From a phage, in NCBI GenBank assembly GCA_025611195.1, contig GCA_025611195.1_4718.2: 64,000 bases of DNA; one strand, given 5' to 3'. The first letter of the stretch is position 1. Each line of letters starts with the position of its first letter. A model generated the notes under the pieces. It was not told where the DNA came from. It did not search any database and worked only from the letters and a program-made list of their open reading frames with translations. The position numbers and the translations under genes were made by a program. Positions 20,626 through 43,368 of this stretch are shown here, piece after piece.

Positions 20626-20630
20626 GATAA

Positions 20631-21971: not shown

Positions 21972-21999
21972 ATTACGTTTCCTTTTCTTTTACGTCAAC

Positions 22000-22020: not shown

Positions 22021-22026
22021 TATGGA

Positions 22027-23613: not shown

Positions 23614-23614
23614 T

Positions 23615-25201: not shown

Positions 25202-25293
25202 AACAACCTCTTTTCGCGGTTCCCTGTTAAAACGTCTTCGGCGACGTCTACCACAAAGGTAACATTTATGTCGCCTCTATGACTTTGTTCATA

Positions 25294-25313
25294 GAGGTAA
25301 TATAAGCGTGAAT
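25294..25313 (-). promoter_or_regulatory. promoter-like motif, minus-strand ATTCACGCTTATATTACCTC
   Basis: Same consensus; about 95 nt upstream of gene start 25201; abuts hairpin 25274-25297. Confidence 0.45.
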
Positions 25314-25443
25314 AATTTTGGATTCCGGCTGAGTTATCGCTCAGCATGCAAGGCATCCCGCCGAAGCGAGACACCTTGCACTAACGGAAGATATTCGCGT
25401 TACCTTCTGAGTCTTCGATTCAGAATGCGAAGCTGAAGCATTA

Positions 25444-26232: not shown

Positions 26233-26305
26233 TTTCAGCCTCGTTACGTAGTGTGAATCAATTTCTGGTTCAGATGATAGTTAATATTAGTTAAAAATTA
26301 CAGCC

Positions 26306-27103
26306 TCAGCGGAACATGTCCAACAGAAAACGTTTTGCGAAGGGGTCGCGTAACTGGTTGACGCCAAAGCGTGTACGGTCTTCCGTTGTTAACGGATTCC
26401 ACTGACTCTGTTTCGCAAGATCTAACAGCATCCTTTTTATTTTCACCGGCCCGCTGTTAAACTGTACGGCTTGGTCGCCGAACGTTCCCAATGTCATCTT
26501 TGTAAATGGGAGGTTCGCAACCTCTGGACGATCTCCACCAGTAAGTTTGGTCGACCACTGATGTTTTCGTTTCAAAGTTCCGGTATGACTCTCTACCAAA
26601 ATAAGTTCACCAAAACCGGTTCTTGCCAACAAGTCAGAAACATAGTGCGTAGTGATATACGACGTTTTGGTTATCGTGGGTAATTTACAATCCATCGATT
26701 CGATATTGGGGAGTCGATCTACAGACGCCATCAACCCACGATAAAGTGTGGCGAGTCCTTTTTGTTTTTCGGTGTGTGGCTCCTTGTGTATAGCGTGCGG
26801 ATAAACACGCTTTATTGACGCATAGGTTGGCGCATATATCCGCAAACGAATATGGGGAACGAGTTCATTCACCAACTGCCTTAGCTGCAGCAACTCGTTT
26901 TGAAAATCCCCCGTTATCATCGATAATGGTAATTTATGCTGTTCGACGTCTTCAAAGCTTTCAACAAAATTGCGCGCTAAAGTACGCAGGTTGAACAACC
27001 AATCCATCGGCGTTTCTGGCTGTTGCTGCACGGCTGATAATGTTGCTGACGTCCCCACCGATAAAGGATAATCACCTAACGTGCGGGCGTACATATCGCT
27101 CAT
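26306..27103 (-). CDS. hypothetical protein (265 aa)
   Basis: ATG at 27103 with AAGGAG RBS; track start 27139 would overlap the upstream gene. Confidence 0.55.
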   Translation of the reverse strand: MSDMYARTLGDYPLSVGTSATLSAVQQQPETPMDWLFNLRTLARNFVESFEDVEQHKLPLSMITGDFQNELLQLRQLVNELVPHIRLRIYAPTYASIKRVYPHAIHKEPHTEKQKGLATLYRGLMASVDRLPNIESMDCKLPTITKTSYITTHYVSDLLARTGFGELILVESHTGTLKRKHQWSTKLTGGDRPEVANLPFTKMTLGTFGDQAVQFNSGPVKIKRMLLDLAKQSQWNPLTTEDRTRFGVNQLRDPFAKRFLLDMFR

Positions 27104-27122
27104 ACCCCACAACTCCTTCTTA

Positions 27123-28265
27123 TCATGGCAACGTATCAAGCCAAGCAGAAACCTTTAAGGCATCAACGTTCGGGTATTTATTACGGATGCGTTCGACCAG
27201 CAAACGCTTAACGTTGTCCTTTGTCAAGTCCCCGCCTTTCTCGATAACGTTATTGACAAAACTGTTCTTTAATAACGACTGGTTGTTCTTGGCGTCCGTT
27301 TTAATTGTCCAGATAAAACCTGGATACAAAGAAGGGATAGAACGAAACGTTTTCGCTGCGTCGTCTTCCTTATCACAACGTATTCGGATGTGATCGCCCT
27401 TCTTCAATGAAGCCAATTCCCGTTCCAATACACGAATGATTTCATCTCCAACAAGACCGTGCAGTTTTATCGTCTTGTAGACATCTGCTTTCTTGTTCTC
27501 AACAAATTCCCATTGGTCGTTAAACGATTCTGTTAACGTATAACGGAGGTACCCCTTTGGACCTTCTTCGCCATGCGACAAGCGACCGAACGAACCGCCA
27601 ACCATGATACGTCCTTTCTGGGATTGTAAGTGGATATGCCCACTCACGACCCACCCTTGGGTCTTCTCTACCATTGCGTTATACGCATCGCTGCTATGAA
27701 CACATGTCGCTTTTAACGCTTCTGGTGGAAGCTGATATTCAAACGCGCCGTGCATCAGAATGAAGTCCGGCGATCCCTTCTCATCAATAAGTCGGTTCAC
27801 AGCCGACAACGTCACATCCGGATCGTGGCTGTAGTTATCTGGAAGATAGAGCACTTTTAAACCAAAGTCTTCATCAACCATGCAGAGATCATCGTAATAA
27901 CGAACTTTCGCTCCTATCTCCATGACCTCGTTCTGTTCAACGAACCACTGGCTTTGCTTCTGGTCATGTAAATTGGTACCTTCAAGAAAGATCAACGTAA
28001 TATCGTGTTTTCTCGCATACCGTAACAACCAGGTACCCCAGGCACGAACAGCAACCACGTCACTCGTTACAAATGTCGTAATACGATCGAAGACATCACC
28101 ACTGAATGTAATCACGTCAAGCAGCGCAGGATCTTCTTTTGTGATATAATAACGTAGCTGGCTAATCAGATTCACTGTCGGTGTTTGACGATGGATAAAG
28201 TGAATATCCGACAAGTTGATTCCTCGTAATACCCCAGGCGTTTTATTTCGACTGAAGTCTCGCAT
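27123..28265 (-). CDS. Mre11/SbcD-like nuclease (calcineurin-like phosphoesterase)
   Basis: Ordered motifs NLSDIHF, SGDVFD, EGTNLHD, MHGAFE, SGHIH match metallophosphoesterase motifs I-V. Confidence 0.55.
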   Translation of the reverse strand: MRDFSRNKTPGVLRGINLSDIHFIHRQTPTVNLISQLRYYITKEDPALLDVITFSGDVFDRITTFVTSDVVAVRAWGTWLLRYARKHDITLIFLEGTNLHDQKQSQWFVEQNEVMEIGAKVRYYDDLCMVDEDFGLKVLYLPDNYSHDPDVTLSAVNRLIDEKGSPDFILMHGAFEYQLPPEALKATCVHSSDAYNAMVEKTQGWVVSGHIHLQSQKGRIMVGGSFGRLSHGEEGPKGYLRYTLTESFNDQWEFVENKKADVYKTIKLHGLVGDEIIRVLERELASLKKGDHIRIRCDKEDDAAKTFRSIPSLYPGFIWTIKTDAKNNQSLLKNSFVNNVIEKGGDLTKDNVKRLLVERIRNKYPNVDALKVSAWLDTLP

Positions 28266-29047
28266 CAGAATTCCTCTAAGTTACTGCTGCTAATAGCCCC
28301 CGTCGTAGACGACACGTTTTTACTGCTCGCCGACGCTGTTGTTGAAGAAGTTCTGGCTAGATTCAATCCGTTTAATAACCCACGCTCTTTTACCGTACGA
28401 CGCGAACCATCACGAACGTCGTAAAGGGGTACGTTATAATGGTCAAAAATCCGAAGCCATTGCACGTAATCAGCAACAACATGGTCTTTGCTTTCATTCG
28501 GAGCAAAGCGATCAAGCTGATGGTCAACGTAAGCTTTAGCGCTTTCAGGATTGAAGTTATACTGTCGACGTGCTTTATCCACCATCGCGAGGAAACACGT
28601 GTTGGGGTCACGATTGATGTATGAACGCGTCCGGATAAAGATAGCCGGTACCGTAAACAGAACCTTGTTGTTATTCCCGTCAGTGACAATATTAACGGCA
28701 CGATGTGGTTGACCTGCTATCTTACACCAATCGTGAACAATGGTACTGTTACTCAGCATCTCCGCGTATTCAGGATCCTGAGAAAACATACCCGCGAACG
28801 GATACAAGAAATGTTTAACAAACAGCGATTCGGGCAGGATGTTGGGACGCGTCATCTCCTGTAAACCTTTTCGTAGAAGCTCGCTGTTGTCTACCAGCTC
28901 CTGCCACATGTCCGGTCGTGTTTTCGGGATGGACGGATCCTGAGCGCGACGAATGCGTTCTTCCTCATTTACAACCACTACCCCAGCCGGATACCCCAAT
29001 AAATCCGTTCCTTCGCTAACGTTGCTGTTAGTTTGGCGCGCCTTCAT
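28265..29047 (-). CDS. hypothetical protein with Ser/Thr-rich C-terminus (260 aa)
   Basis: ORF track. Confidence 0.55.
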   Translation of the reverse strand: MKARQTNSNVSEGTDLLGYPAGVVVVNEEERIRRAQDPSIPKTRPDMWQELVDNSELLRKGLQEMTRPNILPESLFVKHFLYPFAGMFSQDPEYAEMLSNSTIVHDWCKIAGQPHRAVNIVTDGNNNKVLFTVPAIFIRTRSYINRDPNTCFLAMVDKARRQYNFNPESAKAYVDHQLDRFAPNESKDHVVADYVQWLRIFDHYNVPLYDVRDGSRRTVKERGLLNGLNLARTSSTTASASSKNVSSTTGAISSSNLEEF

Positions 29048-29435
29048 TTACTTCCTCCTGCCACTTGACAAAATTACCACGCTCGGATCGCAGAACACCA
29101 CCCAGATCGTACGATATACCTTTCTCTGTGACAATCCCACCAATCTGGAGATCGACACGTTCCGTCGTCGGATCGATATACTTGACACGGACTTTCAATT
29201 CCACACGATCGTAATAACGCATTAAATAATCATACAACATCCGGTATGTCGCATCTTCCAATTTGGGTGCGCTATACTGCGATGTTGCAATGAGGTACGG
29301 TAGTGAAACGATGGAACCTTGATAGCAATACGACTGGGAATAATTCGATATTGCGAAATTGGTCATTAACCCATCCAGCTTTTTTCCCGACGCGGTTAAA
29401 AAGCTCGACAGCCCAGGTAACGGATTCGATGCCAT
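29028..29435 (-). CDS. hypothetical protein (135 aa)
   Basis: ORF track. Confidence 0.55.
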   Translation of the reverse strand: MASNPLPGLSSFLTASGKKLDGLMTNFAISNYSQSYCYQGSIVSLPYLIATSQYSAPKLEDATYRMLYDYLMRYYDRVELKVRVKYIDPTTERVDLQIGGIVTEKGISYDLGGVLRSERGNFVKWQEEVNEGAPN

Positions 29436-29448
29436 GAGGAACTCCTCT

Positions 29449-29898
29449 TTAAGCGTAATTCATTCCAACCAATCTATCGTAGTTAGGCATATGCCCTAAC
29501 TTCAGTTCGACAGGCACGGATACATTGGTACGCGGTGCGTAAAATGTTCGCGTATGCATATCGATATACCCACAGTCCAAATAAACAATATCAGACAACT
29601 CTGCCGGATGTTTAGGTGTGGGAATCTTTAGTCGATTATAACACTCAAGCTGCCACCAGGCATGAAAAAAGTTATTGTAGGCGTACGATTTACTGTTGGC
29701 AACTTTAAGTCCGTAGACAACCCATAACGTCGCCATGAAGTTGGTTGCGTTAATTCGCATCGGTTGTTCATTATTGAGCATGTGCGTGTAGGTAAACAGC
29801 GGTGTGTTACCATCGCCGAAACGTCCGACCAGGGTATTGTTCGTACGTTCGACCTCAAAGGAAAAATGCTGGCTGCTATTGCCATCAAAATGGATCAT
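29449..29898 (-). CDS. hypothetical protein (149 aa)
   Basis: ORF track. Confidence 0.55.
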   Translation of the reverse strand: MIHFDGNSSQHFSFEVERTNNTLVGRFGDGNTPLFTYTHMLNNEQPMRINATNFMATLWVVYGLKVANSKSYAYNNFFHAWWQLECYNRLKIPTPKHPAELSDIVYLDCGYIDMHTRTFYAPRTNVSVPVELKLGHMPNYDRLVGMNYA

Positions 29899-29973
29899 TC
29901 TGTTCTCCTCAAGCTTTTCATTTCATAGAGTGGTGGAAATTCGTAGAAAGTTACAAAAATAAAAAGAATGGGT

Positions 29974-30004
29974 AGTCCCTCCCCACCCGAAGGTAGGGAG
30001 GGAC
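29974..30004 (-). terminator. stem-loop GTCCCTCCC/GGGAGGGAC
   Basis: 9-bp inverted repeat after the stop of 30016-30480. Confidence 0.45.
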
Positions 30005-30015
30005 CACAGATGTAT

Positions 30016-30480
30016 TTAAACCAATGCCGCGATAACGTCGTTAACATTACGACCGCGCAACTCTGCCGCCAAACGAATAACTTCATCCAGGGAACGGTTT
30101 GTACGAATCTTAGCTACTTTCCAATTTTCAGGATACTGTTCGAAGTTAAGTAACCAAGTCATTACCTTTGCTTGTTCCACACCGTTGAGTTTGATTGTCG
30201 TGCGCGGATTGGCTTTGAACCACTTCTTGCTCAGCTGTGCCATACGGCGAACAGGGTAAGCGTAAGCGCGAGTCCAATCTTTGGACAGATTGTCGAGTAA
30301 CTCACGGTAGCTGCTATCGTAGTCTTTGTTGATACGACGTAATAACCAGTTGGCGGTCATCTGATAGAGTTTATCATCTTCACGTAACCGCATCCCTGCT
30401 ACTGCTAAATAAACGATAAGACCTGCACCCATGATGAGAGACAGGATAAACAGAACTTGGGTTTCTTGTGCTAAAGTCAT
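30016..30480 (-). CDS. membrane protein with one N-terminal transmembrane helix
   Basis: Hydrophobic stretch VLFILSLIMGAGLIVYLAVAG; first gene after promoter motif 30572-30591. Confidence 0.55.
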   Translation of the reverse strand: MTLAQETQVLFILSLIMGAGLIVYLAVAGMRLREDDKLYQMTANWLLRRINKDYDSSYRELLDNLSKDWTRAYAYPVRRMAQLSKKWFKANPRTTIKLNGVEQAKVMTWLLNFEQYPENWKVAKIRTNRSLDEVIRLAAELRGRNVNDVIAALV

Positions 30481-30571
30481 TTTTACTATCCTCGGATTTC
30501 GTTAGGATTTGATTTCCAATATAAGGACAATGTGATATGCCTTATACAGTCGATTGATGTTGTACATCACT

Positions 30572-30591
30572 TAAGTAATATAGCCGTGAAA
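30572..30591 (-). promoter_or_regulatory. promoter-like motif, minus-strand TTTCACGGCTATATTACTTA
   Basis: Identical 20-mer; 92 nt upstream of membrane-protein gene start 30480. Confidence 0.5.
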
Positions 30592-30600
30592 AATGTTGGA

Positions 30601-31416
30601 TTAACGTGTTCTCCTATCACGATGCGTATACGACTGAAGACCGATGTCCATATGCGGTAACGTCAGCGTCTGCCAGATCTGTCGTGCGTAGCGATCGAGT
30701 GTATGGTCGTCAGTAACACAATCGACTGGTTCGATGAGGTGAGTCGTATACTGGCTTTTCTCGGAGAAAGGTTCGATGTTAGCGGTGTCCCCTAATCCGC
30801 TTTTCACCGTGAAGACGAGACGGGTAATTATCATCGCCTTATGCTGCTGTTCATTATAGCGAAGGCTACGATATACAGCATAGCTCCCCCCTTTTAGGCT
30901 TCGGGTATAACGAAGGTCGGAGGTCGTCTCGGAAATCTGATACAACATCCAATCCAACGTATCACGCCAGTACGCATCATCCACATCAGGAACCGTGATG
31001 CCATAACGCGTAGGCAGCAGTTCTAAAAGCAGTTTATAAAGTCCACGACGCAGACCATGCTCTTCTGTTTCAGACAAACCGTTTCCAACGTAACGTGAGA
31101 TACGCGTACGTAAATACGTACGGATGAACATATTTGTCATCAGTGATTTCGCGCTACTACTGTTATCCTCAAAGCGATCAACACTGAAACTCGTTTCAAT
31201 CAGCTGCCCATTAAAGTACAATGCGGCAACATACATCGCATTACTGCTATCTCGTTCAATGTTTAAACGCCCGCAGATATTGGCTGCGTCGTTCATGGTA
31301 AATTCTAACTTATCGTGTTCGATACGGTAAATAATATCCTCTTGGGTTGCTAAGCTCGCAATGCGACGATAACCCGGAGAAGTGCGTTTTACACCCATGA
31401 TTGTCCTCGTTTTCAA
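30601..31416 (-). CDS. hypothetical protein (271 aa)
   Basis: ORF track. Confidence 0.55.
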   Translation of the reverse strand: MKTRTIMGVKRTSPGYRRIASLATQEDIIYRIEHDKLEFTMNDAANICGRLNIERDSSNAMYVAALYFNGQLIETSFSVDRFEDNSSSAKSLMTNMFIRTYLRTRISRYVGNGLSETEEHGLRRGLYKLLLELLPTRYGITVPDVDDAYWRDTLDWMLYQISETTSDLRYTRSLKGGSYAVYRSLRYNEQQHKAMIITRLVFTVKSGLGDTANIEPFSEKSQYTTHLIEPVDCVTDDHTLDRYARQIWQTLTLPHMDIGLQSYTHRDRRTR

Positions 31417-31438
31417 TTTAAGATTGCGTGCGGCATAG

Positions 31439-31465
31439 ACCCTCCCCGCCTTATGCAGGGAGGGT
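31439..31465 (-). terminator. stem-loop ACCCTCCCC/GGGAGGGT
   Basis: Inverted repeat between 31480-32118 and 30601-31416. Confidence 0.4.
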
Positions 31466-31479
31466 AGCCATTAAATGGA

Positions 31480-32118
31480 TTAACCTAATTTACCACCGGC
31501 GATATTGGTGAAATCTTCGCCATCAGGAACTTGCAGTAGAATACGTGCCATGTCCCAGTTGGTTAATGTGATTGCTTTATCATCGATACTCAGTTCTGGT
31601 AGGTCGAGTTCATGATCATCAAACTCGTAGGAAATACTCCACGTTTCATCTGTTTTAGGATCTGTCATCAATACACCGTCTGTCACACGCATGTAGTCCG
31701 GATGCAGTTCATTACTGAACGTACTGAACGGATCGGTGTAACATTCAGCATACCCTTCGATCTGCTGACGCTGTGCCTTCGTACGTAATTCAGGGCATGC
31801 CATAATCAGTTGTCGAGATATGCCGTTTGCAGCACGGAAGTCTTCCACGGTGTTACATGGCATAACCACATCGTCATGGAAGATGTTCTCCGATTGTCTC
31901 AACAGCGTCTTACGGAGTTCAGCATAGTTTATCTGATTGAACGCATCGAACGTTGCTAACGATTCAGCGTAAAAATGCTTTACGTGTTCGCTTGCGCCGC
32001 CGAGGCTATTCATCAACTTGTGACCATACTCCATGAAGCTTTTATCGAGACCGGAGGACATTTCTCCGAACCTCAGTGCACGATAACTGTCTCGTCCACC
32101 TGTAAATATTTGCGCCAT
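31480..32118 (-). CDS. hypothetical protein (212 aa)
   Basis: ATG preceded by AAAGGAGGA RBS. Confidence 0.6.
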   Translation of the reverse strand: MAQIFTGGRDSYRALRFGEMSSGLDKSFMEYGHKLMNSLGGASEHVKHFYAESLATFDAFNQINYAELRKTLLRQSENIFHDDVVMPCNTVEDFRAANGISRQLIMACPELRTKAQRQQIEGYAECYTDPFSTFSNELHPDYMRVTDGVLMTDPKTDETWSISYEFDDHELDLPELSIDDKAITLTNWDMARILLQVPDGEDFTNIAGGKLG

Positions 32119-32133
32119 TACAGGCGTCCTCCT

Positions 32134-34723
32134 TTAGCAATGGTTGTTAGTTGCTTCTATTTCATCAAGATACGGTTCTACGTCATCGCCCTCCACGAAT
32201 TCGTTGAACCAACAGTCAATGGTAGAAATAACCGGTGACTGGTGTTCACATTTCTTAGATACCTTAAAAGGTACGTTATTATCCATCATACCGAGTTCGG
32301 GTCGAAAACGCCCGAAATGTTTCGCAGTCCAAATGTCTGGGACGATATGGTTGTTCATCGTGGTGTTCAGCATGAGTCGCTACCTCATACCCGCAGCTTT
32401 ACCTGCAGCTTCCGGTGTTACCGGAATGTCCAGAATACATCTTATCCATATTCCAAATGGAACGTAGGACTTCCGCGCTGGATCTCGCTTGAGACCACGT
32501 ATTCGTTGAACGTTCTCCTGAACGGAGCTTCGCTGCTGATCGAACATTGTCGTGTACGGTAGGCATCCCCGAAGGGATTGTCATTGAAGCCGCGTACATC
32601 CGCTACCTTGTTTCTACCTTATCGGTTCCTCTTACGAGGCGTAGCGGCCTTAGCCCTTCCCAGCAATTCACGGAATCCAAGCTCTTCCTTTCGGAAGGCA
32701 GGGCCTATGATTAAGCATCCCCGTCGCTGTTATCGACTATATCTTCATCCTCGTTGCGAGGAGTCTCCCGTTTGGGTCTGTGTTTAACAGAGCCTACTCT
32801 ACTCAACATCGCGTCTTTCGATAGTCTGTGAGCACACATCTTAACGAACATTCGTGGATTCCTAAACAGGTGAACGTTCTTGTTGAGATGCTTCGCTGCG
32901 GATTATTCCCGTCCTACCTCTTTTACCGTACCCAGTTCATTACGCTGGCCCTCATCTATGTCACCATGATGAGTTGGTGTGTAGTCCGATTACAGAAACT
33001 TCCCGTCAATTAGAGAGTTTTAACTACGTTCCTGTTACCAGAAACCAGATCCCGACGGTATCAATAAATCAACGTAAGTTATTGATTTAATTGAAAAACT
33101 GAAATCTGCATTATCTAAATCTTCAGTATGGTTCGCTACTCCATACCCGTACCTCATGTACTGCTTACGTCTTTCACGTAAGGATAGACTATATCTTTCA
33201 CCCTCAGCATTATCTGGTCGGGGCTCCCATTTCGGCGGTCAGATGACCGGTGGTTTCCCACGCCGCTTGGCCCTAACGCCCGTAAGCGATAGTCGTTGAG
33301 CACATCTCCGTTCTGGAGACTTCGCTGCGGATTCCCCAATCCTTGCCGCTTTTACCGTACCTGAATGATTAGTTCAGCCCCACGCTCTGTTCCCAGGCAT
33401 GGTTGGTGGACGAGGCTCTAAGTAGGTTCCCGCATTAGAGAGTTCCTCGTAACAACATTTCTGCGTTACTGGGCCTAACGACCCTTTCAAGATCATCACG
33501 CTTAACCCGATGGTGTTATCCTGCGGATCGCGTTTAACCTTGGTGATTTCAAGACATTGGTTACTGCTTCGGTCAAGTGATGGGTTTCGAACAAAGCCGC
33601 ACACAATCCCATCGAACGGTGTATCAGCAATAAGCTCATCATGCAGCTCGCTCATCATCGGATGATAATTACGGACATGTTCCGCAACGAACGCACGTGC
33701 TGCTCTCGGTGAATAACCGCGATGGAATAACTTGGATTGGATATGTTCTTTATTGGTTAAAGTAAATGGTGCGTATGGGAAATGCAGATGATAATAACGA
33801 TGGTTCGCTGTTATCGAACTGATTACGGTACGCGTGGTGAATGGATGTAATGTACCTAATATGTTTTTACGCGTGATACCTTTCTTCTTACCGATGAACT
33901 CATCGAAAATCGCCGCGTGGTATTGCAGCAGCTTCAATTGCACTTTCGCCATCCAGTTTTCTTTCTTTCTGGCGCTCAAAGGTGTTGTTGGATGATAGAT
34001 ACTATTCAGTGTACCAATAGCATCGATCGCACCTTCCATTTTGCTATCTGCATAACGGCCGGTCGGTGTATTTTCGATAACGAACATCATGGCCGCAGGA
34101 AAGCTGATATACTGACTGAAGAACTTATCACGATGGATACGGATGAATTCTCGTAGCGTGTCAACTTTCTCTGTGTTCTTCGGTCCACGTAATGTGGGTC
34201 CTTTATACAAGATCTCCATGATGCGATCGAAGTTCTGTATAAAGCTATTTACACCACGCCGTATCCCGAATACATCAAATTGCTGCTCCAGATAGTTCTT
34301 GAGTTCAATGGGTCGTTTTACATTTGGACGGTAACTGGCATCAATGAGCCACGTCATCGTTTCGAAGCTTTTGATATTCAACTCGCTTGCCAGCACGAGA
34401 TGGACCAACGGGTTAATGAACGCATCGATTCCTTCAGGGACACGCGCCCAGACCGTCGAACGAATCTCCTGTTCTGCTGGGTAGGTTACAACCGTTTTAC
34501 AGTTTGGACACACCGTGCCGAGCAACTCACCGCGATTGTAGAAACCACAACCACATTGTGGCGTGATATCCAACGTATCGCTGGAGTAAACACGGGTGAT
34601 AAAACTGTTTAATTTCTTCTTCTCTTCGACGACTTTTGTATCGTAATCGTTCAACAAAATCGGCGTAAAGGGAAGTTCTGCGAGCTGTCTATCGAAACTC
34701 ACGATATCGAGCATGATGGCCAT
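32134..34723 (-). CDS. multisubunit RNA polymerase beta-prime, N-terminal subunit; proposed 4 exons (34723-33490, 33120-33102, 32726-32714, 32367-32134) split by three group I introns
   Basis: Exon 1 has the Zn-finger (CGCG..CPNC) and RNPSLDRSSNQCLEI (cf NRAPTLHRLGIQAFEP); micro-exons encode LDNADF and DGDA; last exon NTTMNNHIVP (cf QMAVHVP); exon lengths 1234+19+13+234 = 1500 nt keep frame; unspliced ORF ends in intron read-through. Confidence 0.5.
32368..32713 (-). other. group I intron C (ORF-less, about 346 nt)
   Basis: P AATTGCTGGGAAGGG with Q ATCAGCAGCGAAG (compensatory GCTG/CAGC), R CAACGAATACG with S AAGATGTATTC (compensatory P7 change); 3' tail homologous to intron A. Confidence 0.45.
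32727..33101 (-). other. group I intron B (ORF-less, about 375 nt; 3' domain unusually short)
   Basis: P AATTGACGGGAAG, Q AATCCGCAGCGAAG, R GTGCTCACAGACTATCG, S GAAGATATAGTCGATAAC; only about 8 nt between S and the proposed 3' splice G. Confidence 0.4.
33121..33489 (-). other. group I intron A (ORF-less, about 369 nt)
   Basis: Minus-strand elements P AATGCGGGAACC, Q GAATCCGCAGCGAAGTC, R GTGCTCAACGACTATCGC, S AAAGATATAGTCTATCC in correct order; possible P1 pairing exon GAUCU with GGGUC; boundaries approximate. Confidence 0.5.
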
Positions 34724-34765
34724 GGGACATCTCCTACAAATGAAAAAGAACGTTAGGACGTATAA

Positions 34766-34789
34766 GGGAGGGAGGTTGCCCTCCCTCCC
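34766..34789 (-). terminator. stem-loop GGGAGGGAGG/CCTCCCTCCC between chimallin candidate and beta-prime N gene
   Basis: 10-bp perfect inverted repeat; may set expression ratio between the two genes. Confidence 0.45.
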
Positions 34790-34815
34790 GTCAGATTACA
34801 TCGAACGTTCTTCCA

Positions 34816-36711
34816 TTAGAACAGGTTGAATGCTCCACCCATGTTGTTACCACCAACATTCGGACGATCGCTACGTGCATAGATGTTGCCGGAGATGTTA
34901 CCCAGACCACGAGCACGTGCTGCTGTGTTACCACGAACGGCGGTACCTGCCAGATGCTGGATGTTCTCAGGACGGATGGTGAAGCCAGCTTCGGCAGCCG
35001 CTTCAATCAATGCCGCAAGCGCATTCGGTTCGAAATCGTAACGCATTGCCCAACCGGTTTGTTCCCAGCTACCAGACAGAACGCGATCGATGATTTCGTG
35101 ACGAGCAACAACACGCTGAGACATCGACATATCGGTACGGTCGAAGCTGTCTTCCCAAGCTTCTACGGTATCCGGGTTAGTGATGTTCATCATGTACAGA
35201 TCGTCCATATCACGAATATCGTGACGGTTACCGTCCTGGTGGTTGTAGTGACCCAGCGGGATACGGTTACCAGTAGCGTAGACTAACGGTTGGCCGTATT
35301 GATATTTCTTGCTGAAGCAACCCAGGGTGGTATCATCGAATGCACGATAGAGTGCTTTATAGCCTTCGGAGATTTCTTGAACTTTACCGTCAACGTTGCC
35401 CGTAAAGATCTTCTCAGCTGCAGGGATCATACGCAGCAACCAGCTATATTCGCCTTCTTCCGGTACGTCGATAGAAATCAGCAGAGACGGATACAGTACC
35501 TGTTGCAGGAACTTGTAAATCTGCTCGTTGGTTTGAGTAGACAGATCCAGCGGTGCAGTAACTTCCGGATCCAGTACCATCGCCAGAGCACCCGGGTTAT
35601 GCGGACCAATACCACGAGCAGCGTTGCTGATTAAAGACTGCGCCCACGCCATACCGCTGTTCAGCGTAGCGATGGTACCAATCAGACCCAGCACAAACGT
35701 GTTCGGAGTGAACGCATCCAGCTCCAGCGGGTAGGCGCTGGTCATCACGTAACGCGGTTGGTACTGTACAGTCGGCGGTACCGGATAACCGTTAACCAGA
35801 ACAGGACCTTGGTTGAAGGTCGGGTTCTGCGGGCTGTAGGTCAGGTCAATGTAACCAGTGGTTGCGACCAGGCGCTGTTGACTATCGTAATCGCTCATCG
35901 CTTGACGGATACGGTTAGAGATAGTTACAGTGATGTCAGAACGCACTGGGTTACCGACGATATCGCTGTCCTGCATACCGCTGGTGTTGTACTGAACGCT
36001 GCTGATCGGCTGATCGCTTGCCATCATGCCCAGGTTGAACTGCGGCAGACCCAGTTTATCGCCGAGACGGATTTCGATCGCGGTTTGGATTGCGTTATCT
36101 GCAGCAGACAGCAGGGTGGTTGCCAGATGCGCAGATTCAGCAGTGATTTCATTGGTCACCACAGCCAGACCGGCGATACGAACAGTACCGTTAGCCTTAC
36201 CGCCAATAGCCGCATACATTGCCGCCATGACTTCGTTGATGAACGTGCCGTTCAGGTTATCAACCCAGGTACGCGGTACCAGAATGTTACCATGCGGACC
36301 TTGTTCTTCACGACGCGGCAGCGGAGCCAAACCGGCAACCAGCGGAAGCACATAACCGAAGAAGTGGTTATGGTCACCAACTTTTGCACCGCTCATAACA
36401 ACCAGGGTCGGATACGGTACACTGTACTGGTTAGGATCGACGGTCACCATGATGAAGTCGTCTTTGAACCCTTTATCTTCCAGTTCTTTCTCCATCAGAC
36501 GACGGAGATTCAGTACCTGCTCGGAGCCAGTATTACGGCTAATACGACGGCTCAGTGTACGGTTGATCGTACGCATCGTATGAGTTACTTTAGGCTGGCC
36601 AGCAAAATCTGCAGCGGTTTCCAGCGCCTCATCAGCACGTTGTGCGGTGCGGGTTTCAGCTGCACGAATTTCTACATTATCGTTACCGTTATTACGTACG
36701 TCTAAGCCCAT
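34816..36711 (-). CDS. chimallin (phage nucleus shell protein) candidate
   Basis: 631 aa, the size recalled for known chimallins; directly upstream of the beta-prime N gene as recalled for phiKZ gp54-gp55; strong preferred-codon bias; first gene after promoter motif 36781-36800; no sequence comparison possible. Confidence 0.4.
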   Translation of the reverse strand: MGLDVRNNGNDNVEIRAAETRTAQRADEALETAADFAGQPKVTHTMRTINRTLSRRISRNTGSEQVLNLRRLMEKELEDKGFKDDFIMVTVDPNQYSVPYPTLVVMSGAKVGDHNHFFGYVLPLVAGLAPLPRREEQGPHGNILVPRTWVDNLNGTFINEVMAAMYAAIGGKANGTVRIAGLAVVTNEITAESAHLATTLLSAADNAIQTAIEIRLGDKLGLPQFNLGMMASDQPISSVQYNTSGMQDSDIVGNPVRSDITVTISNRIRQAMSDYDSQQRLVATTGYIDLTYSPQNPTFNQGPVLVNGYPVPPTVQYQPRYVMTSAYPLELDAFTPNTFVLGLIGTIATLNSGMAWAQSLISNAARGIGPHNPGALAMVLDPEVTAPLDLSTQTNEQIYKFLQQVLYPSLLISIDVPEEGEYSWLLRMIPAAEKIFTGNVDGKVQEISEGYKALYRAFDDTTLGCFSKKYQYGQPLVYATGNRIPLGHYNHQDGNRHDIRDMDDLYMMNITNPDTVEAWEDSFDRTDMSMSQRVVARHEIIDRVLSGSWEQTGWAMRYDFEPNALAALIEAAAEAGFTIRPENIQHLAGTAVRGNTAARARGLGNISGNIYARSDRPNVGGNNMGGAFNLF

Positions 36712-36780
36712 TTGGGATTCCTCTTTTCTTAAACTTTATTAAATGACGTCATTGAATCAGCTTCTACTCGCTCATTCACC

Positions 36781-36800
36781 TAGGTAATATAACCCTGAAA
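36781..36800 (-). promoter_or_regulatory. promoter-like motif, minus-strand TTTCAGGGTTATATTACCTA
   Basis: Same consensus; 70 nt upstream of the chimallin candidate start. Confidence 0.5.
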
Positions 36801-36965
36801 TTTTTTTCAATATTGGTGTAACCACATTGAACGATATAAACCCCTAGGCGAACGCTGCCGAGAAGCAACATTCTTTCTACATATAATCAGGATATGTCTG
36901 TAAACTTTTACTTCTCTTATTGAGAGTAATGTCATATCCGTTTACCATCTTCTTACGGAGTTCGT

Positions 36966-38060
36966 ATGTTTCGTGTTTTAAATAACCTCCCGCGAACATC
37001 ATCGGGTGTGCAACCCGTCCCTCAGAAAGACTATCTAATACGCGAAGTTCAAAGAAACCTACAGACAATCCAGAACCACTATCAGGGTTTTACCTTCGCG
37101 GTTCAGAGCGATCACATCCTTGCGTTGCTGCTCGCACAGCTCCCTATGAGATACGACATCTCAGTACAAACTTACTACGACATGATTCTCGATCTCACTC
37201 CAGAATTGGGTAATCGTGTTAAGTTGACAACATCAAGATACGCGGGTAAGTTATTCGACGGTGCTTTCTATCCAGGATTGCATGAAGCTATTATCGCAAC
37301 CGGTGAAAGTCGTCTTATTTCACGTGACGTTCTTGACAACTGGCGTAATTGGTCACCAGTTAGAATCGTGACGCACCCATACGCAAATCTTCGTTACATT
37401 CCTCTTCACCAAAAGCAGGTTGAGGAAGGACGAGGTTTTGCGGTCATTATGGTTGATGTACCATTATTAGCACTACAGTATCGAATGTGGTCTTTGGTCA
37501 TGGGTCATAACGTCGACGGTAAATGGGTGGTTAAAGAGCCGGTTACAAGCTTCCTTGCGAGTTTTCCGTTGGTTAACGCATTATACTCACACAACGATAT
37601 TGTTATACGTAACCGTTGTTTGTGGGTGTCTCCGGCTAAGAATCCACTCAAATCACCAATTTACGTTAACGACCTTGATAACGTATTCGACCAAGTCGTT
37701 CTGTCCGTACAGCATCATTTATTACGAAGAAGACGAAGCTACACCGACATGCTTAAACAGATACCGAGTTTATACGGAGATCAGTACCAAGCGACCCGAA
37801 TGGGCTACACTGTCGATCTTCGACAAACGCGATGGGCAAGAGATCTGGGTTGTCTGTCATTATGGCAACAACTCGTCACATTGCAAAACGTATCCGAAAG
37901 CGTCGGGTTCAGCAGCCAAATCGATAACGACCTGTACCGTGCTGCCGACCGGAGTCTAAAAGAAGGTAACTGGGAATCTTCTCCGTTACCTGGCGATTTA
38001 AGACGTGAAGTTATTGCACAGGTTGCCGACCTCTTAAAAATTCTTCCTGCTGGTGCATAA
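36966..38060 (+). CDS. hypothetical protein (364 aa)
   Basis: ORF track, ATG start; convergent hairpin 38080-38111 downstream. Confidence 0.6.
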   Translation: MFRVLNNLPRTSSGVQPVPQKDYLIREVQRNLQTIQNHYQGFTFAVQSDHILALLLAQLPMRYDISVQTYYDMILDLTPELGNRVKLTTSRYAGKLFDGAFYPGLHEAIIATGESRLISRDVLDNWRNWSPVRIVTHPYANLRYIPLHQKQVEEGRGFAVIMVDVPLLALQYRMWSLVMGHNVDGKWVVKEPVTSFLASFPLVNALYSHNDIVIRNRCLWVSPAKNPLKSPIYVNDLDNVFDQVVLSVQHHLLRRRRSYTDMLKQIPSLYGDQYQATRMGYTVDLRQTRWARDLGCLSLWQQLVTLQNVSESVGFSSQIDNDLYRAADRSLKEGNWESSPLPGDLRREVIAQVADLLKILPAGA

Positions 38061-38079
38061 CCACCTCCTTCTTTCCACG

Positions 38080-38111
38080 CATCCTCCCAACCCGTAAGGG
38101 AAGGGAGGATG
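38080..38111. terminator. stem-loop between convergent genes (CATCCTCCC/GGGAGGATG)
   Basis: 9-bp inverted repeat between 36966-38060 (+) and 38127-40280 (-). Confidence 0.5.
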
Positions 38112-38126
38112 GGGTGGTGGGTTATG

Positions 38127-40280
38127 TTATTCTGCAGTTTCTTGCTTCGGTAAATAACTTGCTGCGATGTCTTGGGCCAACAATGTATTGTTTTTATTCG
38201 AGATGAAAATACCGTAACTTTCCATTAACGCATAATACGAACGAACGAGCGTAGAGATCAGTCGACGAATATCCATACCTTGAATAAAGATATCAGGAAG
38301 CCCGGAGGCTTCGATCACTGGTAATGGTATCGTTAAGTTGCTTATCGTTTTCTTATCGTTACGTACAATCCAATCACGGAAACGTTGTTGTAACCCTTTA
38401 TCCTCCCAGGAATCAATCCAATCATTAAGAAGCGTTTTGTTCTTCGTCGCCAACGGTACACGAACCCCAACATAAGGTGGTTCGGGGCAATGGCCGTACG
38501 ATTGAGCAAACACTTCTTCCCACATATCGTAAGACTGTTTCGTTACCGCAACATGTGGTTTCACTTTAACACGTGTTAAGAAATCCGGATCGCCACGTTT
38601 CATTGATTCAACGATTTCGTTCTCTAGTGAGATAATATCGTCAAGAACCAATCGAATGCTGATCTTCTCATTACGTAACAGCTTATCCATTATACCACAC
38701 ATCATGCGTTCAACACGTTGGACGATTATTTTTGGTGCTGACGCATCACGCATAACAGGACCTTTCAACTCCAGCTTCGGTGGGTTGATGGGAACCCCTT
38801 CACGCATGGTCATGTATCCGTAATAGTTTTTACCCATCGAGGTTAACGACAGAATTAAGAACATATATTCGTTCTTCATTTCCATTACGTACATATGCTC
38901 TTTCGCTACACCGATATTACCAGAACACATCGCCATCAGATGAACCGTAATCTGCGTAACCAGATAGATAAGCGTGTTTGCTAAGCGCGTCGAAATCGGA
39001 TTGATCTCCATATTTCCAAATCGCCACTGAACCCACTCCTGGCAGGTAAACACCGTCGAGTCGGTATCAGACAACACACCCACTTCACGGATTGCTGACG
39101 GAAAAGCATAAACACCAGCCGGTTGGTTCTCGGTACGCCAGAACGCCTTAATTAAATCAGCGTAGCTTTGGATGCGTTGCAACATTAATTTTGTCGTTGC
39201 TGCAGTAAGACGATAACCAAGTTCATTTCCTTTTTCTAGCGCTACGTAAATCGCTTCCCCGTTCAAGAACTCCGTGCATTGTGCTGTAATCCAAGCGACC
39301 GTGTTGTTATCCATGGAAGCAATAATGGCTTTAGCCTCTTCCATCGTTTCAACAGGCTCGGATGCCAGTTCACATAACGAGTCAAGAAAATCTCGAACAA
39401 ATTCAGGATTAAGCTCACGTAACGAGTACAGGTTATTGCTGTACATGTAGCAGGCGCGTTCCAACGGCGTTAAACCGGTAATTAGCTCCCGGATGGTCAG
39501 TTCTTTCTCTGGGTCGAAAATATATCGATGCAAGCATTTCGATACGTTAGCCCAAACCTCTTCCGGTGTAGGGTAATGCAGTTTGTATTTTACCATTACC
39601 TGCTCAATGGCTTTACGATCGCTGTTACGGACAATGCTCACAATGTTTTCAATTGCGATATCGCAATCGTAATAATGGAAATTACCCGCAAGGAAGCGTT
39701 CGTTGTTCGCATTGGCTGAACCTGAAGCACAGCGACATGTTGTCGTTAAACTTGGATGCGCGATCGGATTATAAAAAGGGTTAAACTTGGATGCCTGTGT
39801 TCCTGATAAACTGTTGTTGTCTAACTTGGTGTTGGTTTGTCGTTTATCGTGTAACTCAGCTTCGTCTTTACGTCCATGGGCTTGCGCTATCGACATTTGT
39901 TTCTTTTGTTTCTTACGCAACTTACCGTTTTCAACCGCAAAGTCGCTTAGCACACTGGAACGTGTTTCACGCGGATAACAGTTAGCCCATACCGGCGTGA
40001 TAATTAAATTATTTTCTTTAATATCATTGAAGTATTGGCTGAACTTGATGACTTCTTTTTCTCGGTTTCCTTCAGTACGCTGTGTTAGTACAAGGCAGTC
40101 GGGATCAACCATCCCGTATTTTCCACCAGGACTAACCGTATCAAGAACAAACTGCAACGCTTCCCGCTGAGAAATCCCACGCATGCGCATTAAGAACAGG
40201 GTATAATCCTGTACCGCTTCTTTGGTCATATCCAACGTACGACCATATCCGTTTTCATCGTAAAAGAACGGATTTTCCAT
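38127..40280 (-). CDS. large hypothetical protein (717 aa); weak candidate RNAP beta N-terminal portion
   Basis: YGHCPEPPYVG loosely resembles beta YGRVCPIETPEGPNIG; also contains SDTDS; assignment speculative. Confidence 0.6.
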   Translation of the reverse strand: MENPFFYDENGYGRTLDMTKEAVQDYTLFLMRMRGISQREALQFVLDTVSPGGKYGMVDPDCLVLTQRTEGNREKEVIKFSQYFNDIKENNLIITPVWANCYPRETRSSVLSDFAVENGKLRKKQKKQMSIAQAHGRKDEAELHDKRQTNTKLDNNSLSGTQASKFNPFYNPIAHPSLTTTCRCASGSANANNERFLAGNFHYYDCDIAIENIVSIVRNSDRKAIEQVMVKYKLHYPTPEEVWANVSKCLHRYIFDPEKELTIRELITGLTPLERACYMYSNNLYSLRELNPEFVRDFLDSLCELASEPVETMEEAKAIIASMDNNTVAWITAQCTEFLNGEAIYVALEKGNELGYRLTAATTKLMLQRIQSYADLIKAFWRTENQPAGVYAFPSAIREVGVLSDTDSTVFTCQEWVQWRFGNMEINPISTRLANTLIYLVTQITVHLMAMCSGNIGVAKEHMYVMEMKNEYMFLILSLTSMGKNYYGYMTMREGVPINPPKLELKGPVMRDASAPKIIVQRVERMMCGIMDKLLRNEKISIRLVLDDIISLENEIVESMKRGDPDFLTRVKVKPHVAVTKQSYDMWEEVFAQSYGHCPEPPYVGVRVPLATKNKTLLNDWIDSWEDKGLQQRFRDWIVRNDKKTISNLTIPLPVIEASGLPDIFIQGMDIRRLISTLVRSYYALMESYGIFISNKNNTLLAQDIAASYLPKQETAE

Positions 40281-40347
40281 AAATCCTCCAAAAGTTATTT
40301 AGTCTGTCTACATCATCTCGTATATCTGTTAAAAAAGAAGGACGGCA

Positions 40348-40371
40348 TAAAAAGAACCGATCCAGCCGAAG
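40348..40371 (-). terminator. intrinsic terminator-like hairpin with minus-strand U-tract
   Basis: Minus strand CCGATCTGGCTTCGGCTGGATCGG followed by TTCTTTTTAT, downstream of 40577-40990. Confidence 0.5.
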
Positions 40372-40576
40372 CCAGATCGGTTTAAAGGATAATAACTGAC
40401 AGAAAGATATCGATGATGTTCGTGAAACAAGATCTTCTCTCGTGTACAATGATGCCAGATCAGAGGGAGGTTGTAACACGAGAGGTGGTTCGCCAAAGAA
40501 GGAATAAAAACACGAACCTATCTTATTTCACTGATGGCACTAACCACTCAAAATATATAGTACTGTATGTAAAAGT

Positions 40577-40990
40577 TTACTGATTAATCAAGTCGTTAGC
40601 AACAATCTTGGTGTAACCTGCCTGATTAAGAATTTGATTAATTTTTGTCATGTCGGTTGCATCCTCGATAACGATGCTGGGTTTATAGATCAGCGTCTTG
40701 GTAACAACGATTGTACTCTCCTTAATCCAAGGAATCCCTAAAATTACATACTCGCCATCAGCTGTGATGACCTCGACGTAATTGTACTTCGTCGGATCGT
40801 TCGGTACACTCGACGGGAGCCGGGAATAAATCTGTTGGTGAATGGCGTCCACATCACGGCCGTTACGTACAGCGGTACGATAATTGTACACCGCGCTAAT
40901 TTCTACTCCGTTGAAGTTAACCCCAAGTTCTGGGGCGTACACATCAAAACTCACAACAGAGCCAATCTTTTCTAAATCAGAAGCTGGCAT
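40577..40990 (-). CDS. hypothetical protein (137 aa)
   Basis: ORF track; followed by terminator hairpin 40348-40371. Confidence 0.55.
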   Translation of the reverse strand: MPASDLEKIGSVVSFDVYAPELGVNFNGVEISAVYNYRTAVRNGRDVDAIHQQIYSRLPSSVPNDPTKYNYVEVITADGEYVILGIPWIKESTIVVTKTLIYKPSIVIEDATDMTKINQILNQAGYTKIVANDLINQ

Positions 40991-41001
40991 AATAGCATCC
41001 T

Positions 41002-41523
41002 TTATTTAAAAATGTATTCATACCCGAAAGTCGTCGCCGACCAGACCCGGATAGATGATAGTGTTCCACCACGATAAAACGTTTTTGTGAACTCCATATC
41101 CTGGACAACACGATAATAAACACGTCCGATAATACGCACGATAAGATATCGTGATAACGATCTCTCCTCGCAGTACTCATCGATAAAGTCATCGTCGATA
41201 TCTGATAAGACAACGTCTGCGATTTCTTGCAGTAGATTCCTCATCAGCATCTGCCTTCCTTCGGTACCCCACCCAGACAAACAGTAGTCGTCTTCTGCTT
41301 GACTATAGATGTCGTTAACCGCCTGTTCGAGCAGTTGCTCAAGATAGTAGTCATCGCGCTTTATAACGTGGCGACGGCGCTCAGAGGCGTATTTTTCCAT
41401 CCTGTGTTTCTCTTGTTCGGCGTATGTATTAACGACGCCACAGTCTTTTCTGGATCGTCCCACAATGCGCGACGAAAACTGGATACTACCATAACGGTAG
41501 GATAGATTTGTACGACCTCCCAC
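41002..41523 (-). CDS. hypothetical protein (start uncertain, possibly 41400)
   Basis: ORF track; overlaps upstream ORF by about 160 nt unless an internal start is used. Confidence 0.4.
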   Translation of the reverse strand: MGGRTNLSYRYGSIQFSSRIVGRSRKDCGVVNTYAEQEKHRMEKYASERRRHVIKRDDYYLEQLLEQAVNDIYSQAEDDYCLSGWGTEGRQMLMRNLLQEIADVVLSDIDDDFIDEYCEERSLSRYLIVRIIGRVYYRVVQDMEFTKTFYRGGTLSSIRVWSATTFGYEYIFK

Positions 41524-41849
41524 CCGTAACGATGTGTGTTAGTCGTACGTCCGACATTGAACAGACATAACTGATTTAAGAAACAGAGCTGTATCTTTGT
41601 AAACAACACTGTGTCTTCACGTTTAACGTATCCGAGGATATAGGCATTCTCGAACGCCTCGCGTGACAAGACGGGGCGATTAAGGTACCGCAACGCTAAT
41701 ACCAGCAACGTTGTTATACGCAACGGATCTTCTGGGTCATTCATGGTGCTCAGCTCTGCTTGTAACCAGTCGGGGATAGTAACCGTCAGACGATAGGTAT
41801 CTGTTCCACGATCAACCACATTCAACGTTGAAAAAGGCAACATATCCAT
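41361..41849 (-). CDS. hypothetical protein (162 aa)
   Basis: ORF track; part of a chain of overlapping minus-strand ORFs. Confidence 0.45.
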   Translation of the reverse strand: MDMLPFSTLNVVDRGTDTYRLTVTIPDWLQAELSTMNDPEDPLRITTLLVLALRYLNRPVLSREAFENAYILGYVKREDTVLFTKIQLCFLNQLCLFNVGRTTNTHRYGWEVVQIYPTVMVVSSFRRALWDDPEKTVASLIHTPNKRNTGWKNTPLSAVATL

Positions 41850-42387
41850 GAATTCCTTCTATCTCGAGGTTGTTCTCGCAGGTCTTGGGTAATAACCCAC
41901 TGGCCGTTAACATCTGTGTCATCGAGTAATCAAAGCACGGAAATATAAGGTTAACGGTTTCCTGGATCGCGTCAACATAACTATAAATGGCTTCATAATA
42001 CTCACCATCATGATCTACGCTAACCAGTTCCTGACACAGTTCTTCGCTTATCATTTCATATACCGGCGGATACCACGATTGAAATGGTCGCTGCATACGT
42101 AACGACCAGTACTCGTACGTCGTATACTGAAGCACGTCATAAGCCGATACGTTAATGCGGTCGAAGAAAGCATACTTGTCCATATGCTGATACAACATCG
42201 CCAGTACGGTTTCCAAGCACACCGATATCCGCACGCCACCATCTTTCCCGTTAAGAAAATTAGGTTTCTGCCGATAACGCACAAATGCCGACGGCTTTGA
42301 TTGTATTATTCCACCACCAACCATAACGTCATACTCGTATCTAACGTAAAATTGAAATGCCACCAATCTTCTACACGTGGGATCCAC
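41812..42387 (-). CDS. hypothetical protein (start possibly 42324)
   Basis: ORF track; part of overlapping chain. Confidence 0.45.
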   Translation of the reverse strand: MDPTCRRLVAFQFYVRYEYDVMVGGGIIQSKPSAFVRYRQKPNFLNGKDGGVRISVCLETVLAMLYQHMDKYAFFDRINVSAYDVLQYTTYEYWSLRMQRPFQSWYPPVYEMISEELCQELVSVDHDGEYYEAIYSYVDAIQETVNLIFPCFDYSMTQMLTASGLLPKTCENNLEIEGIHGYVAFFNVECG

Positions 42388-42791
42388 GTACGAAGAATCT
42401 GGTTAACTTCGCTTCGCATCACCGATAAACGACAACGAAAGTCGAACTTCTCATCATGACCGTAGTCTTCATGCATGAAAACTTCGTCCAAAACGAACTC
42501 AAGTTGCGTGTCTACATCACGACCGGAGATATTTCGTTTGTACAGATACAGTTCAATCGTGTCATAAAGCAACGTATGAATATCATAATTTCCGTTCGGC
42601 GAGAAATAAGGTAATCGCTCATCGAACATCGAAAACAGATATTCACTGTAGTTTAATAACGGGATGATGTACCGACGTCCGGTCTGTGGTGTGCGAATAT
42701 GTATCGAAACCTGACTTGGACGCGGAATAGCCGACGGCTTAGAATCGTCTCTCTGAAATTGCTCTAAAGATCGCAACAAAGGTGGCCGCAT
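42306..42791 (-). CDS. hypothetical protein (161 aa)
   Basis: ATG start confirmed at 42791; overlaps upstream ORF by 53 nt. Confidence 0.45.
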   Translation of the reverse strand: MRPPLLRSLEQFQRDDSKPSAIPRPSQVSIHIRTPQTGRRYIIPLLNYSEYLFSMFDERLPYFSPNGNYDIHTLLYDTIELYLYKRNISGRDVDTQLEFVLDEVFMHEDYGHDEKFDFRCRLSVMRSEVNQILRTWIPRVEDWWHFNFTLDTSMTLWLVVE

Positions 42792-43368
42792 TGTAACTCT
42801 CCAACGCCCAATTGTAAGGCCCTTCTAACATGTGTTCCCATACGTGAATAAACTCACTACCGAAGACAGGCTCCAGCGCCATGGTGAGATTCGTAAGTTC
42901 TGACGCGGCCGCATGGTAAGCATCAACGTGTCTTTCCATTGACGGATCGTCTTCATTGAAAATACGTTCTGTGTCGCCAGCCCGTTCAATAAGTTCGGTA
43001 ATGAGATCTGTCCATGTTTCGTGGCACGTCATCATTTCCTGTTCTCGACTTAGTATTCCGATGTCTGCGTGTACGCTGGACTCGAACCGGTCGAAAAGGA
43101 CCCGAAGAACATGCACCTTGTCGATGTATCTCACCGTTATCCAAGAAAGCGGTTGCCATCGACTCAGCGTCCATCCGGTACTCGGGAACCCCAAACTCAT
43201 ATAGTACGGGTTGCACGGGACCGAAGACGGAGCGACGCTGTTTAAATCGTTCCTTAATGGCAATGCCCTGTTTAATGTAAATGGGTTCATTGGCGAGTCG
43301 TTTCGCTTTTTGTTTTGCGTGAGCCAATCGAAGTTCTTCCAATTGCCCAAGCCATTCAAATTGTTCAT
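42739..43368 (-). CDS. hypothetical protein (start uncertain)
   Basis: ORF track; N-terminal 126 codons overlap the preceding ORF in another frame. Confidence 0.4.
   Translation of the reverse strand: MNNLNGLGNWKNFDWLTQNKKRNDSPMNPFTLNRALPLRNDLNSVAPSSVPCNPYYMSLGFPSTGWTLSRWQPLSWITVRYIDKVHVLRVLFDRFESSVHADIGILSREQEMMTCHETWTDLITELIERAGDTERIFNEDDPSMERHVDAYHAAASELTNLTMALEPVFGSEFIHVWEHMLEGPYNWALESYNAATFVAIFRAISERRF

Follow-up and report, generated by a model that had tools for sequence, protein, structure and literature searches.

A chimallin gene (chmA) in a Goslar-like, nucleus-forming jumbo phage, with its putative expression signals and a predicted intron cluster in the adjoining polymerase gene

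An open reading frame at 34816..36711 (minus strand) in a 64,000-nucleotide stretch of phage DNA, referred to here as the window, raises the question of whether its product is chimallin, the major shell protein of the phage nucleus, or a capsid protein. The open reading frame listing gives an uninterrupted ATG-to-TAA frame of 631 aa at this position, and the frame is genuine; its strand had been left unstated in the initial annotation. The initial annotation named chimallin as the candidate identity, stated that sequence-level confirmation was lacking, and gave a capsid protein as the alternative. Searches of Pfam, PHROGs and the PDB, together with an alignment to the corresponding gene of Escherichia phage vB_EcoM_Goslar, identify the gene almost certainly as chmA (chimallin) of a Goslar-like jumbo phage of E. 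coli/Salmonella, a member of the Chimalliviridae belonging to the genus Goslarvirus or to a sister lineage.

The only Pfam family matched by the 631-aa protein is PF25677, “Phikzvirus chimallin family” (Chimallin_Phikzvirus). The match, at 98.1 bits, lies above the curated cut-off of 27 bits and covers most of the protein, from residue 20 to residue 595 (profile positions 11-591 of 627). In PHROGs the match is to phrog_4795, “nuclear shell protein” (1.1e-54, residues 19-629). All four matches among solved structures are chimallins; the best is Goslar chimallin 7SQT_A (also 7SQU and 7SQV), with 1381 bits over residues 1-631, and 8FNE, PhiPA3 PhuN, follows at 4.2e-21. The three chimallins that the initial annotation put forward for comparison are each recovered. 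Goslar ChmA, gp246, which carries the RefSeq annotation “nuclear shell protein”, is identical at 609 of 631 residues (96.5%) in a full-length, gapless alignment; phiKZ gp54 shows 24% identity across 613 residues (E 3e-17); and 201phi2-1 gp105 is matched through its structure 7SQQ (9.3e-12). The confirmation missing from the initial annotation is thus supplied by a score above the Pfam threshold and by the full-length match to Goslar ChmA. A tblastn search with the protein finds matches in 106 phage records, nearly all of them from phiKZ-like jumbo phages (Pseudomonas, Erwinia, Ralstonia and others), and many of these matches are annotated as nuclear shell protein. Since the protein is 96.5% identical to a chimallin of solved structure, the first reading of the gene was right, and the gene is one that was already known. 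The sequence offers no evidence to the contrary.

The surroundings of the gene are those of a phage of the Chimalliviridae. In a nucleotide search of the phage collection, Goslar was the sole match. Positions 1..42898 of the window are collinear with Goslar 135524..179087 at 94.4% nucleotide identity, interrupted by only two indels of more than 100 nt; chmA taken with its flanks reaches 95.2% identity, and a stretch of 24 kb reaches 95.7%. A search of complete E. coli genomes and of a plasmid collection with positions 32000..36900 gave no match. On the same strand as chmA, and beginning 92 nt past its stop codon, lies the open reading frame of the nvRNAP beta-prime N gene (33374..34723, minus strand), which matches PHROG 2987 (2e-113) and has 31% identity to phiKZ gp55 (E 8e-67). 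On the other side, a gp52-like gene occupies the opposite strand (36966..38060, plus strand; E 2e-16 to phiKZ gp52), followed by a divergent family B DNA polymerase (38127..40280; PF20286, 4.5e-204). These three genes, the gp52-like gene, chmA and the beta-prime N gene, correspond one-to-one with phiKZ gp52 (likewise on the opposite strand), gp54 and gp55. The order in phiKZ is the same as in the window, and the gp54-gp55 order that the initial annotation had given is therefore confirmed. The PhuZ-like tubulin that it had noted is also present, at 44667..45647 (minus strand), where 322 of 326 residues (99%) are identical to those of Goslar PhuZ, gp234, and the window further contains a phiKZ-type sheath.

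At a gapless identity of 96.5%, the protein can be taken to have the architecture of the solved Goslar chimallin, namely a two-domain core with the tail segments NTS, CTS1 and CTS2. In 201phi2-1 the segments involved in lattice assembly are NTS (residues 48-61), CTS1 (590-611) and CTS2 (622-631); NTS docks onto the neighbouring protomer inside the tetramer, and CTS1 and CTS2 connect tetramers flexibly to give flat square lattices and closed shells (PMC9365700). Chimallin tetramers and cubic assemblies of Goslar have been solved at high resolution, and the NTS and CTS1 contacts in Goslar are near-identical to those of 201phi2-1 (PMC9365700). Residues 1-75 and 622-631 of the window's protein are identical to those of Goslar gp246. 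With boundaries transferred by alignment from 201phi2-1 numbering, and hence approximate, NTS and CTS2 would be unchanged with respect to Goslar, M596T would fall in CTS1, and V621G would lie at the edge of CTS2.

Comparison of chmA with its Goslar counterpart gives 22 replacement codons and 69 synonymous ones, with dS of 0.19 and dN/dS of 0.11, and the gene is under clear purifying selection. In three core genes nearby the ratio against Goslar is nonetheless 4-14 times lower, at 0.026 (DNA polymerase), 0.024 (gp52-like gene) and 0.008 (exon 1 of beta-prime N). Fourteen of the 22 replacements fall into three clusters, at residues 76-90 (five), 436-445 (five) and 561-574 (four), and the other eight are scattered, including the two near the C-terminal tail segments mentioned above. 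The clusters might mark patches on the shell surface that co-evolve with partners, such as import and export factors or capsid-docking proteins, or that evade host factors, a reading which we consider doubtful. In its host-factor form, the factors concerned could be ones that recognise the shell, met by a phage that moves between E. coli and Salmonella in persistent infections. Clustered replacements are also expected from relaxed constraint on surface loops.

An early-promoter-like motif, TTTCAGGGTTATATTACCT, is located at 36782..36800 on the minus strand, the coding strand of chmA, ~70 nt before the ATG, and includes TATATTAC at 36784..36791. Counted with three mismatches allowed, the 19-nt motif has four copies in the window against 0.14 expected, a number that was reached in none of 100 shuffles, which bears out the promoter-like motif of the initial annotation. 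Each of the four copies lies on the minus strand, ~55-95 nt before the next minus-strand open reading frame. The bare 8-mer TATATTAC is not enriched in the window (four copies, 2.6 expected); it is the published core of phiKZ promoters, and a predicted promoter consensus, TTTCARR..TATATTAY....GTG, has been published for 201phi2-1, OBP and N1M2 (PMC7058600). The motif before chmA closely resembles the published predicted consensus of phiKZ, 201phi2-1, OBP and N1M2 and is identical in Goslar. Because of this resemblance to the phiKZ-type consensus, we infer that the virion polymerase uses it as an early promoter. A scan for sigma-70 promoters around chmA found sites no commoner than in shuffles, and a promoter of the host type is thus unsupported.

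The upstream intergenic region as a whole is strongly conserved, with 252 of 254 positions identical to Goslar, compared with 94.5% identity in the gene itself; among 21 intergenic segments, which average 93.9% identity, it shares first place for conservation. A structured leader was considered as the reason for this conservation and dropped, because RNA folding finds no significant structure in the 5' UTR (z = -0.65). A Shine-Dalgarno sequence, AGAGGA, can be read directly at 36719..36724 (minus strand), 7 nt before the ATG. The codon usage of chmA is the most biased in the window: among 33 non-overlapping open reading frames of 200 aa or more, it has the lowest effective number of codons (Wright), 35.7, followed by the tail sheath (40.4) and PhuZ (43.4), with most of the others at 48-55. 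The strong preferred-codon bias ascribed to this 631-aa frame in the initial annotation therefore holds.

Directly after the stop codon, RNA folding places a strong hairpin followed by a U-rich tract at 34741..34813 (minus strand). Its core stem, GGGAGGGAGG / CCTCCCTCCC at 34766..34789, encloses a GCAA loop; the stem comprises 10 bp of G+C and is prolonged by an outer stem extension, and the U-rich tract lies at 34741..34750. The fold has an energy of -47.4 kcal/mol (z = -6.2), and none of 200 shuffles was as stable. The hairpin is identical in Goslar, and the downstream intergenic region is identical at 90 of 92 positions. Its form suggests a terminator or an element that stabilises the mRNA. 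A simple terminator scan around chmA found sites no commoner than in shuffles and missed the hairpin at 34741..34813, so that a role in termination is put forward only as a probable one. Taken with its flanks, chmA has the appearance of a highly expressed transcription unit that is complete in itself.

The first alternative to be weighed is that the 631-aa protein is the major capsid protein or another abundant structural protein of the virion. In favour of this, the gene is long and strongly codon-biased, and its product is therefore probably abundant. Chimallin peptides also occur in purified Goslar virion preparations, where gp246 was found by mass spectrometry; the authors attribute it to fragments of the phage nucleus that co-purify with the particles (bioRxiv 10.64898/2026.04.21.720040). 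Against this, Pfam and PHROGs each return the chimallin family only, with no capsid or virion family, and the best match among solved structures is a chimallin at 96.5% identity. In addition, the major capsid protein of Goslar is the product of a separate gene, gp41, and chimallin is absent from the 28 modelled structural proteins of Goslar (bioRxiv 10.64898/2026.04.21.720040). A capsid identity, which the initial annotation had kept as its alternative, is on these grounds excluded, and we give it next to no probability. The expectation, stated there too, that a chimallin should be missing from virions does not stand as worded: gp246 is detected in Goslar preparations, and absence from virions is consequently not a clean mark of a chimallin.

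It may also be asked whether the gene, though a homologue of chmA, has lost or altered its function, as a decaying copy or a minor component of the shell. The 22 substitutions with respect to Goslar and the dN/dS of 0.11, raised above that of the three neighbouring core genes, are in its favour. That ratio still denotes clear purifying selection, however, and the frame is of full length, with neither indels nor stop codons. It combines the strongest codon bias in the window with a near-invariant promoter region and, the genomes being collinear, corresponds by position to Goslar gp246 as its orthologue. Moreover, it shares 96-99% identity with 15 other sequences, namely Goslar gp246 and 14 from its 90% cluster. 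A change of function is accordingly very improbable for the homologue in general, and a decayed or re-purposed paralogue in particular is very unlikely.

The adjoining beta-prime N gene deserves separate description, since both of the large indels between the window and Goslar fall within it: the window is without a 1065-nt Goslar segment that bears an HNH endonuclease open reading frame, and has an extra 368 nt. Three group I introns, with two micro-exons of 13 nt between them, appear to interrupt the gene within its catalytic NADFDGD motif. At the Rfam gathering threshold there is no match in the window or at the Goslar locus, and the group I introns emerge solely at the E-value threshold, with matches at 33165..33501 (29.6 bits, E 3e-5) and 32727..33093 (46.9 bits, E 2e-10) and a partial match at 32471..32675 (16.7 bits). 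Reading of the intron junctions yields a gene model in which exon 1 is predicted to end in ...LKG plus one T, followed by intron A (33480..33115), micro-exon ATAATGCAGATTT, intron B (33101..32727), micro-exon CGACGGGGATGCT, intron C (32713..32359) and the last exon (32358..32134). The exons would be joined as ...AAAGGGT / ATAATGCAGATTT / CGACGGGGATGCT / ATGAACAAC..., and the predicted spliced product, ...SVMILKGYNADFDGDAMNNHIVPD..., aligns without gaps to the intronless 201phi2-1 gp107, ...SVLCLKAPNADFDGDQLNMTLLPD...; many intronless homologues cover all the junctions as a single piece.

Goslar-like genomes with chimallins of 96.5% identity or more vary in their set of introns. One such genome from IMG/VR (L008) shares the window's set. 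Goslar has intron B with the HNH open reading frame, plus intron C, and a further IMG/VR genome (L007) carries a pair of C-type introns, inserted at partly different sites, with an 18-nt micro-exon between them. In phiKZ a single intron, with the HNH gene gp56, is found at another codon of the NADFDGD motif. A consensus fold of 90 pairs is common to the C-type introns, with compensatory change in 28 of the pairs, and the two C-type introns of L007 match RF00028 at 26-28 bits. Since the intron sets and sites differ among relatives, the catalytic NADFDGD loop of nvRNAP beta-prime is, as judged from the predicted junctions, an intron hot spot that is polymorphic among very close relatives. On the same gene model, the annotated Goslar coding sequences gp247 and gp185 are exon fragments.

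Published work on the relatives suggests how the gene would act. Its phiKZ-type early promoter would presumably be read by the injected virion RNA polymerase, and the Shine-Dalgarno sequence, the codon-biased coding sequence and the very stable 3' hairpin would complete the expression unit; early expression has been described for chimallin (bioRxiv 10.64898/2026.04.21.720040). Being nearly identical to Goslar ChmA, the protein would be expected to build a square lattice of tetramers by self-assembly. The closed chimallin shell would, by analogy, surround the replicating phage DNA and keep host nucleases out, and such exclusion would make it necessary to export mRNA and to import selected proteins. 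What is said here of self-assembly, of early expression and of protection is extrapolated from the studies of Goslar and 201phi2-1. For Goslar gp246, assembly of a closed shell around the phage DNA in infected cells has been demonstrated (PMC9365700; 10.1101/2023.09.22.559000). The nucleus of Goslar in infected E. coli has been labelled by GFP-ChmA, gp246 (10.1101/2023.09.22.559000), and a dRfxCas13d (CRISPRi-ART) knockdown study describes ChmA as essential (PMC10541120).

The protein itself is already in the databases. The exact 631-aa protein is found in NCBI as HCP6916053.1, labelled “hypothetical protein [Escherichia coli]” and encoded on a contig of 102,688 bp, and is in reality a phage chimallin. 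Its 90% cluster has 249 members; the named ones among those listed come from E. coli and Salmonella assemblies, many of them on contigs of ~235-241 kb. A study of persistent virulent phages reported 59 Goslar-like genomes in bacterial assemblies besides the single isolate Goslar; in 59 of these 60 genomes the chimallin exceeded 90% similarity to the Goslar protein (bioRxiv 10.1101/2024.12.31.630880). The gene, the protein, its structure, its role and the occurrence of Goslar-like phages in bacterial assemblies are thus already known and published, and nothing scientifically new on chimallin is added here. What is settled is the annotation: the window belongs to a Goslar-like, nucleus-forming jumbo phage. 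The list of variants may serve as a natural mutational scan, showing which positions of a structurally characterised shell protein tolerate change, and the very strong conservation of the regulatory flanks of chmA may likewise be useful.

Among the known systems, Goslar ChmA (gp246, YP_009820873; PDB 7SQT, 7SQU, 7SQV) stands closest to the window's protein. It likewise has 631 aa and occupies the orthologous genome position, and it differs by 22 substitutions, with 94.5% identity of the genes at the nucleotide level. The chimallin family PF25677 is common to PhiPA3 gp53 (PhuN/ChmA; 8FNE, 8FV5), 201phi2-1 gp105 (7SQQ) and phiKZ gp54. These proteins align from residues ~42-62 to ~600 at an identity of only ~24%, and their phages infect Pseudomonas, in contrast to the E. 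coli/Salmonella hosts of the Goslar-like phage. The phiKZ protein, at 626 aa, is close in size to that of Goslar, in line with the initial annotation's remark that 631 aa fits the characterised chimallins, and its gene is situated directly upstream of the nvRNAP beta-prime N gene, as in the window; a published figure legend gives a corresponding order for PhiPA3, with gp53 as ChmA and gp54 as an nvRNAP subunit. The Goslar-type chimallin is further distinguished by a CTS2 that is shorter than that of 201phi2-1 and makes a distinct set of contacts (PMC9365700).

The exact ChmA (phage-nucleus shell protein) sequence is found in HCP6916053.1, which is labelled “hypothetical protein [Escherichia coli]” and situated on a contig of 102,688 bp. 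The 90% cluster of this ChmA has 249 members; the named members that were read belong to E. coli and Salmonella assemblies, and many of them lie on contigs of ~235-241 kb. The presence of the cluster in these assemblies is in keeping with the “persistent virulent phage” phenomenon described in the literature. A search of complete E. coli genomes and a plasmid collection gave no match. On sequence identity, the phage is placed near the 95% species line, at about 94-96% to Escherichia phage Goslar.

The intergenic region of 254 nt (36712..36965) that separates chmA (34816..36711, minus strand) from the divergent gp52-like gene (36966..38060, plus strand) is identical to that of Goslar at 252 positions, and is jointly the most conserved among 21 intergenic segments compared between the window and Goslar. 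The synonymous divergence from Goslar in both flanking genes corresponds to a dS of 0.15-0.19. No significant RNA structure was found in the chmA leader. A 19-nt motif, TTTCASGSYTATATTACYT, is present in the window in four copies versus 0.14 expected, all on the minus strand (7262..7280, 25295..25313, 30573..30591, and 36782..36800), and a minus-strand ORF begins about 55-95 nt past every copy. The motif is similar to promoters that published work has predicted in phiKZ-like phages, so the four copies are probably early promoters for the virion RNA polymerase. Directly upstream of the copy at 25295..25313, a stretch of 32 nt (25263..25294) does not align to Goslar.

The immediate downstream neighbour of chmA is the nvRNAP beta-prime N gene. 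Between the two genes, a very stable hairpin (34741..34813, minus strand; z = -6.2) is formed by the stem GGGAGGGAGG/CCTCCCTCCC with a GCAA loop and is followed by a U-rich tract; it shows no difference from the hairpin of Goslar. This element may be a terminator or may stabilise the mRNA; a simple terminator scan made no call at this position.

The beta-prime N gene (32134..34723, minus strand) appears from its sequence to be interrupted within the codons that specify its catalytic motif, NADFDGD. The predicted interruptions, all on the minus strand, are three group I introns, namely A (33480..33115), B (33101..32727), and C (32713..32359), which are set apart by two micro-exons of 13 nt each. 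Once spliced, the gene would encode a product that gives a gapless alignment with the intronless gp107 of 201phi2-1. The 449-aa ORF at 33374..34723 includes 34 codons of read-through into predicted intron A; it and the ORF at 32134..32373 correspond to gp247 and gp185 of Goslar. Goslar gp247 (4753..6024 of locus L001), annotated as “RNA polymerase beta subunit”, ends in ...YNADFSFFN*, and gp185 (2736..2975 of L001; 79 aa) is annotated as “hypothetical protein”. The pair resembles the first exon and the last exon of a single gene, reading into intron sequence.

The intron set of beta-prime N varies between Goslar-like genomes despite a chimallin identity of at least 96.5%. Goslar carries intron B with an HNH ORF, and intron C. 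Of two IMG/VR genomes, L008 has the same intron set as the window; in L007 there are two introns of the C type, and their sites are partly different. In phiKZ, gp55 and gp56.1 likewise look like an exon pair of one gene, and the single intron of beta-prime N occupies a fourth site within the NADFDGD motif.
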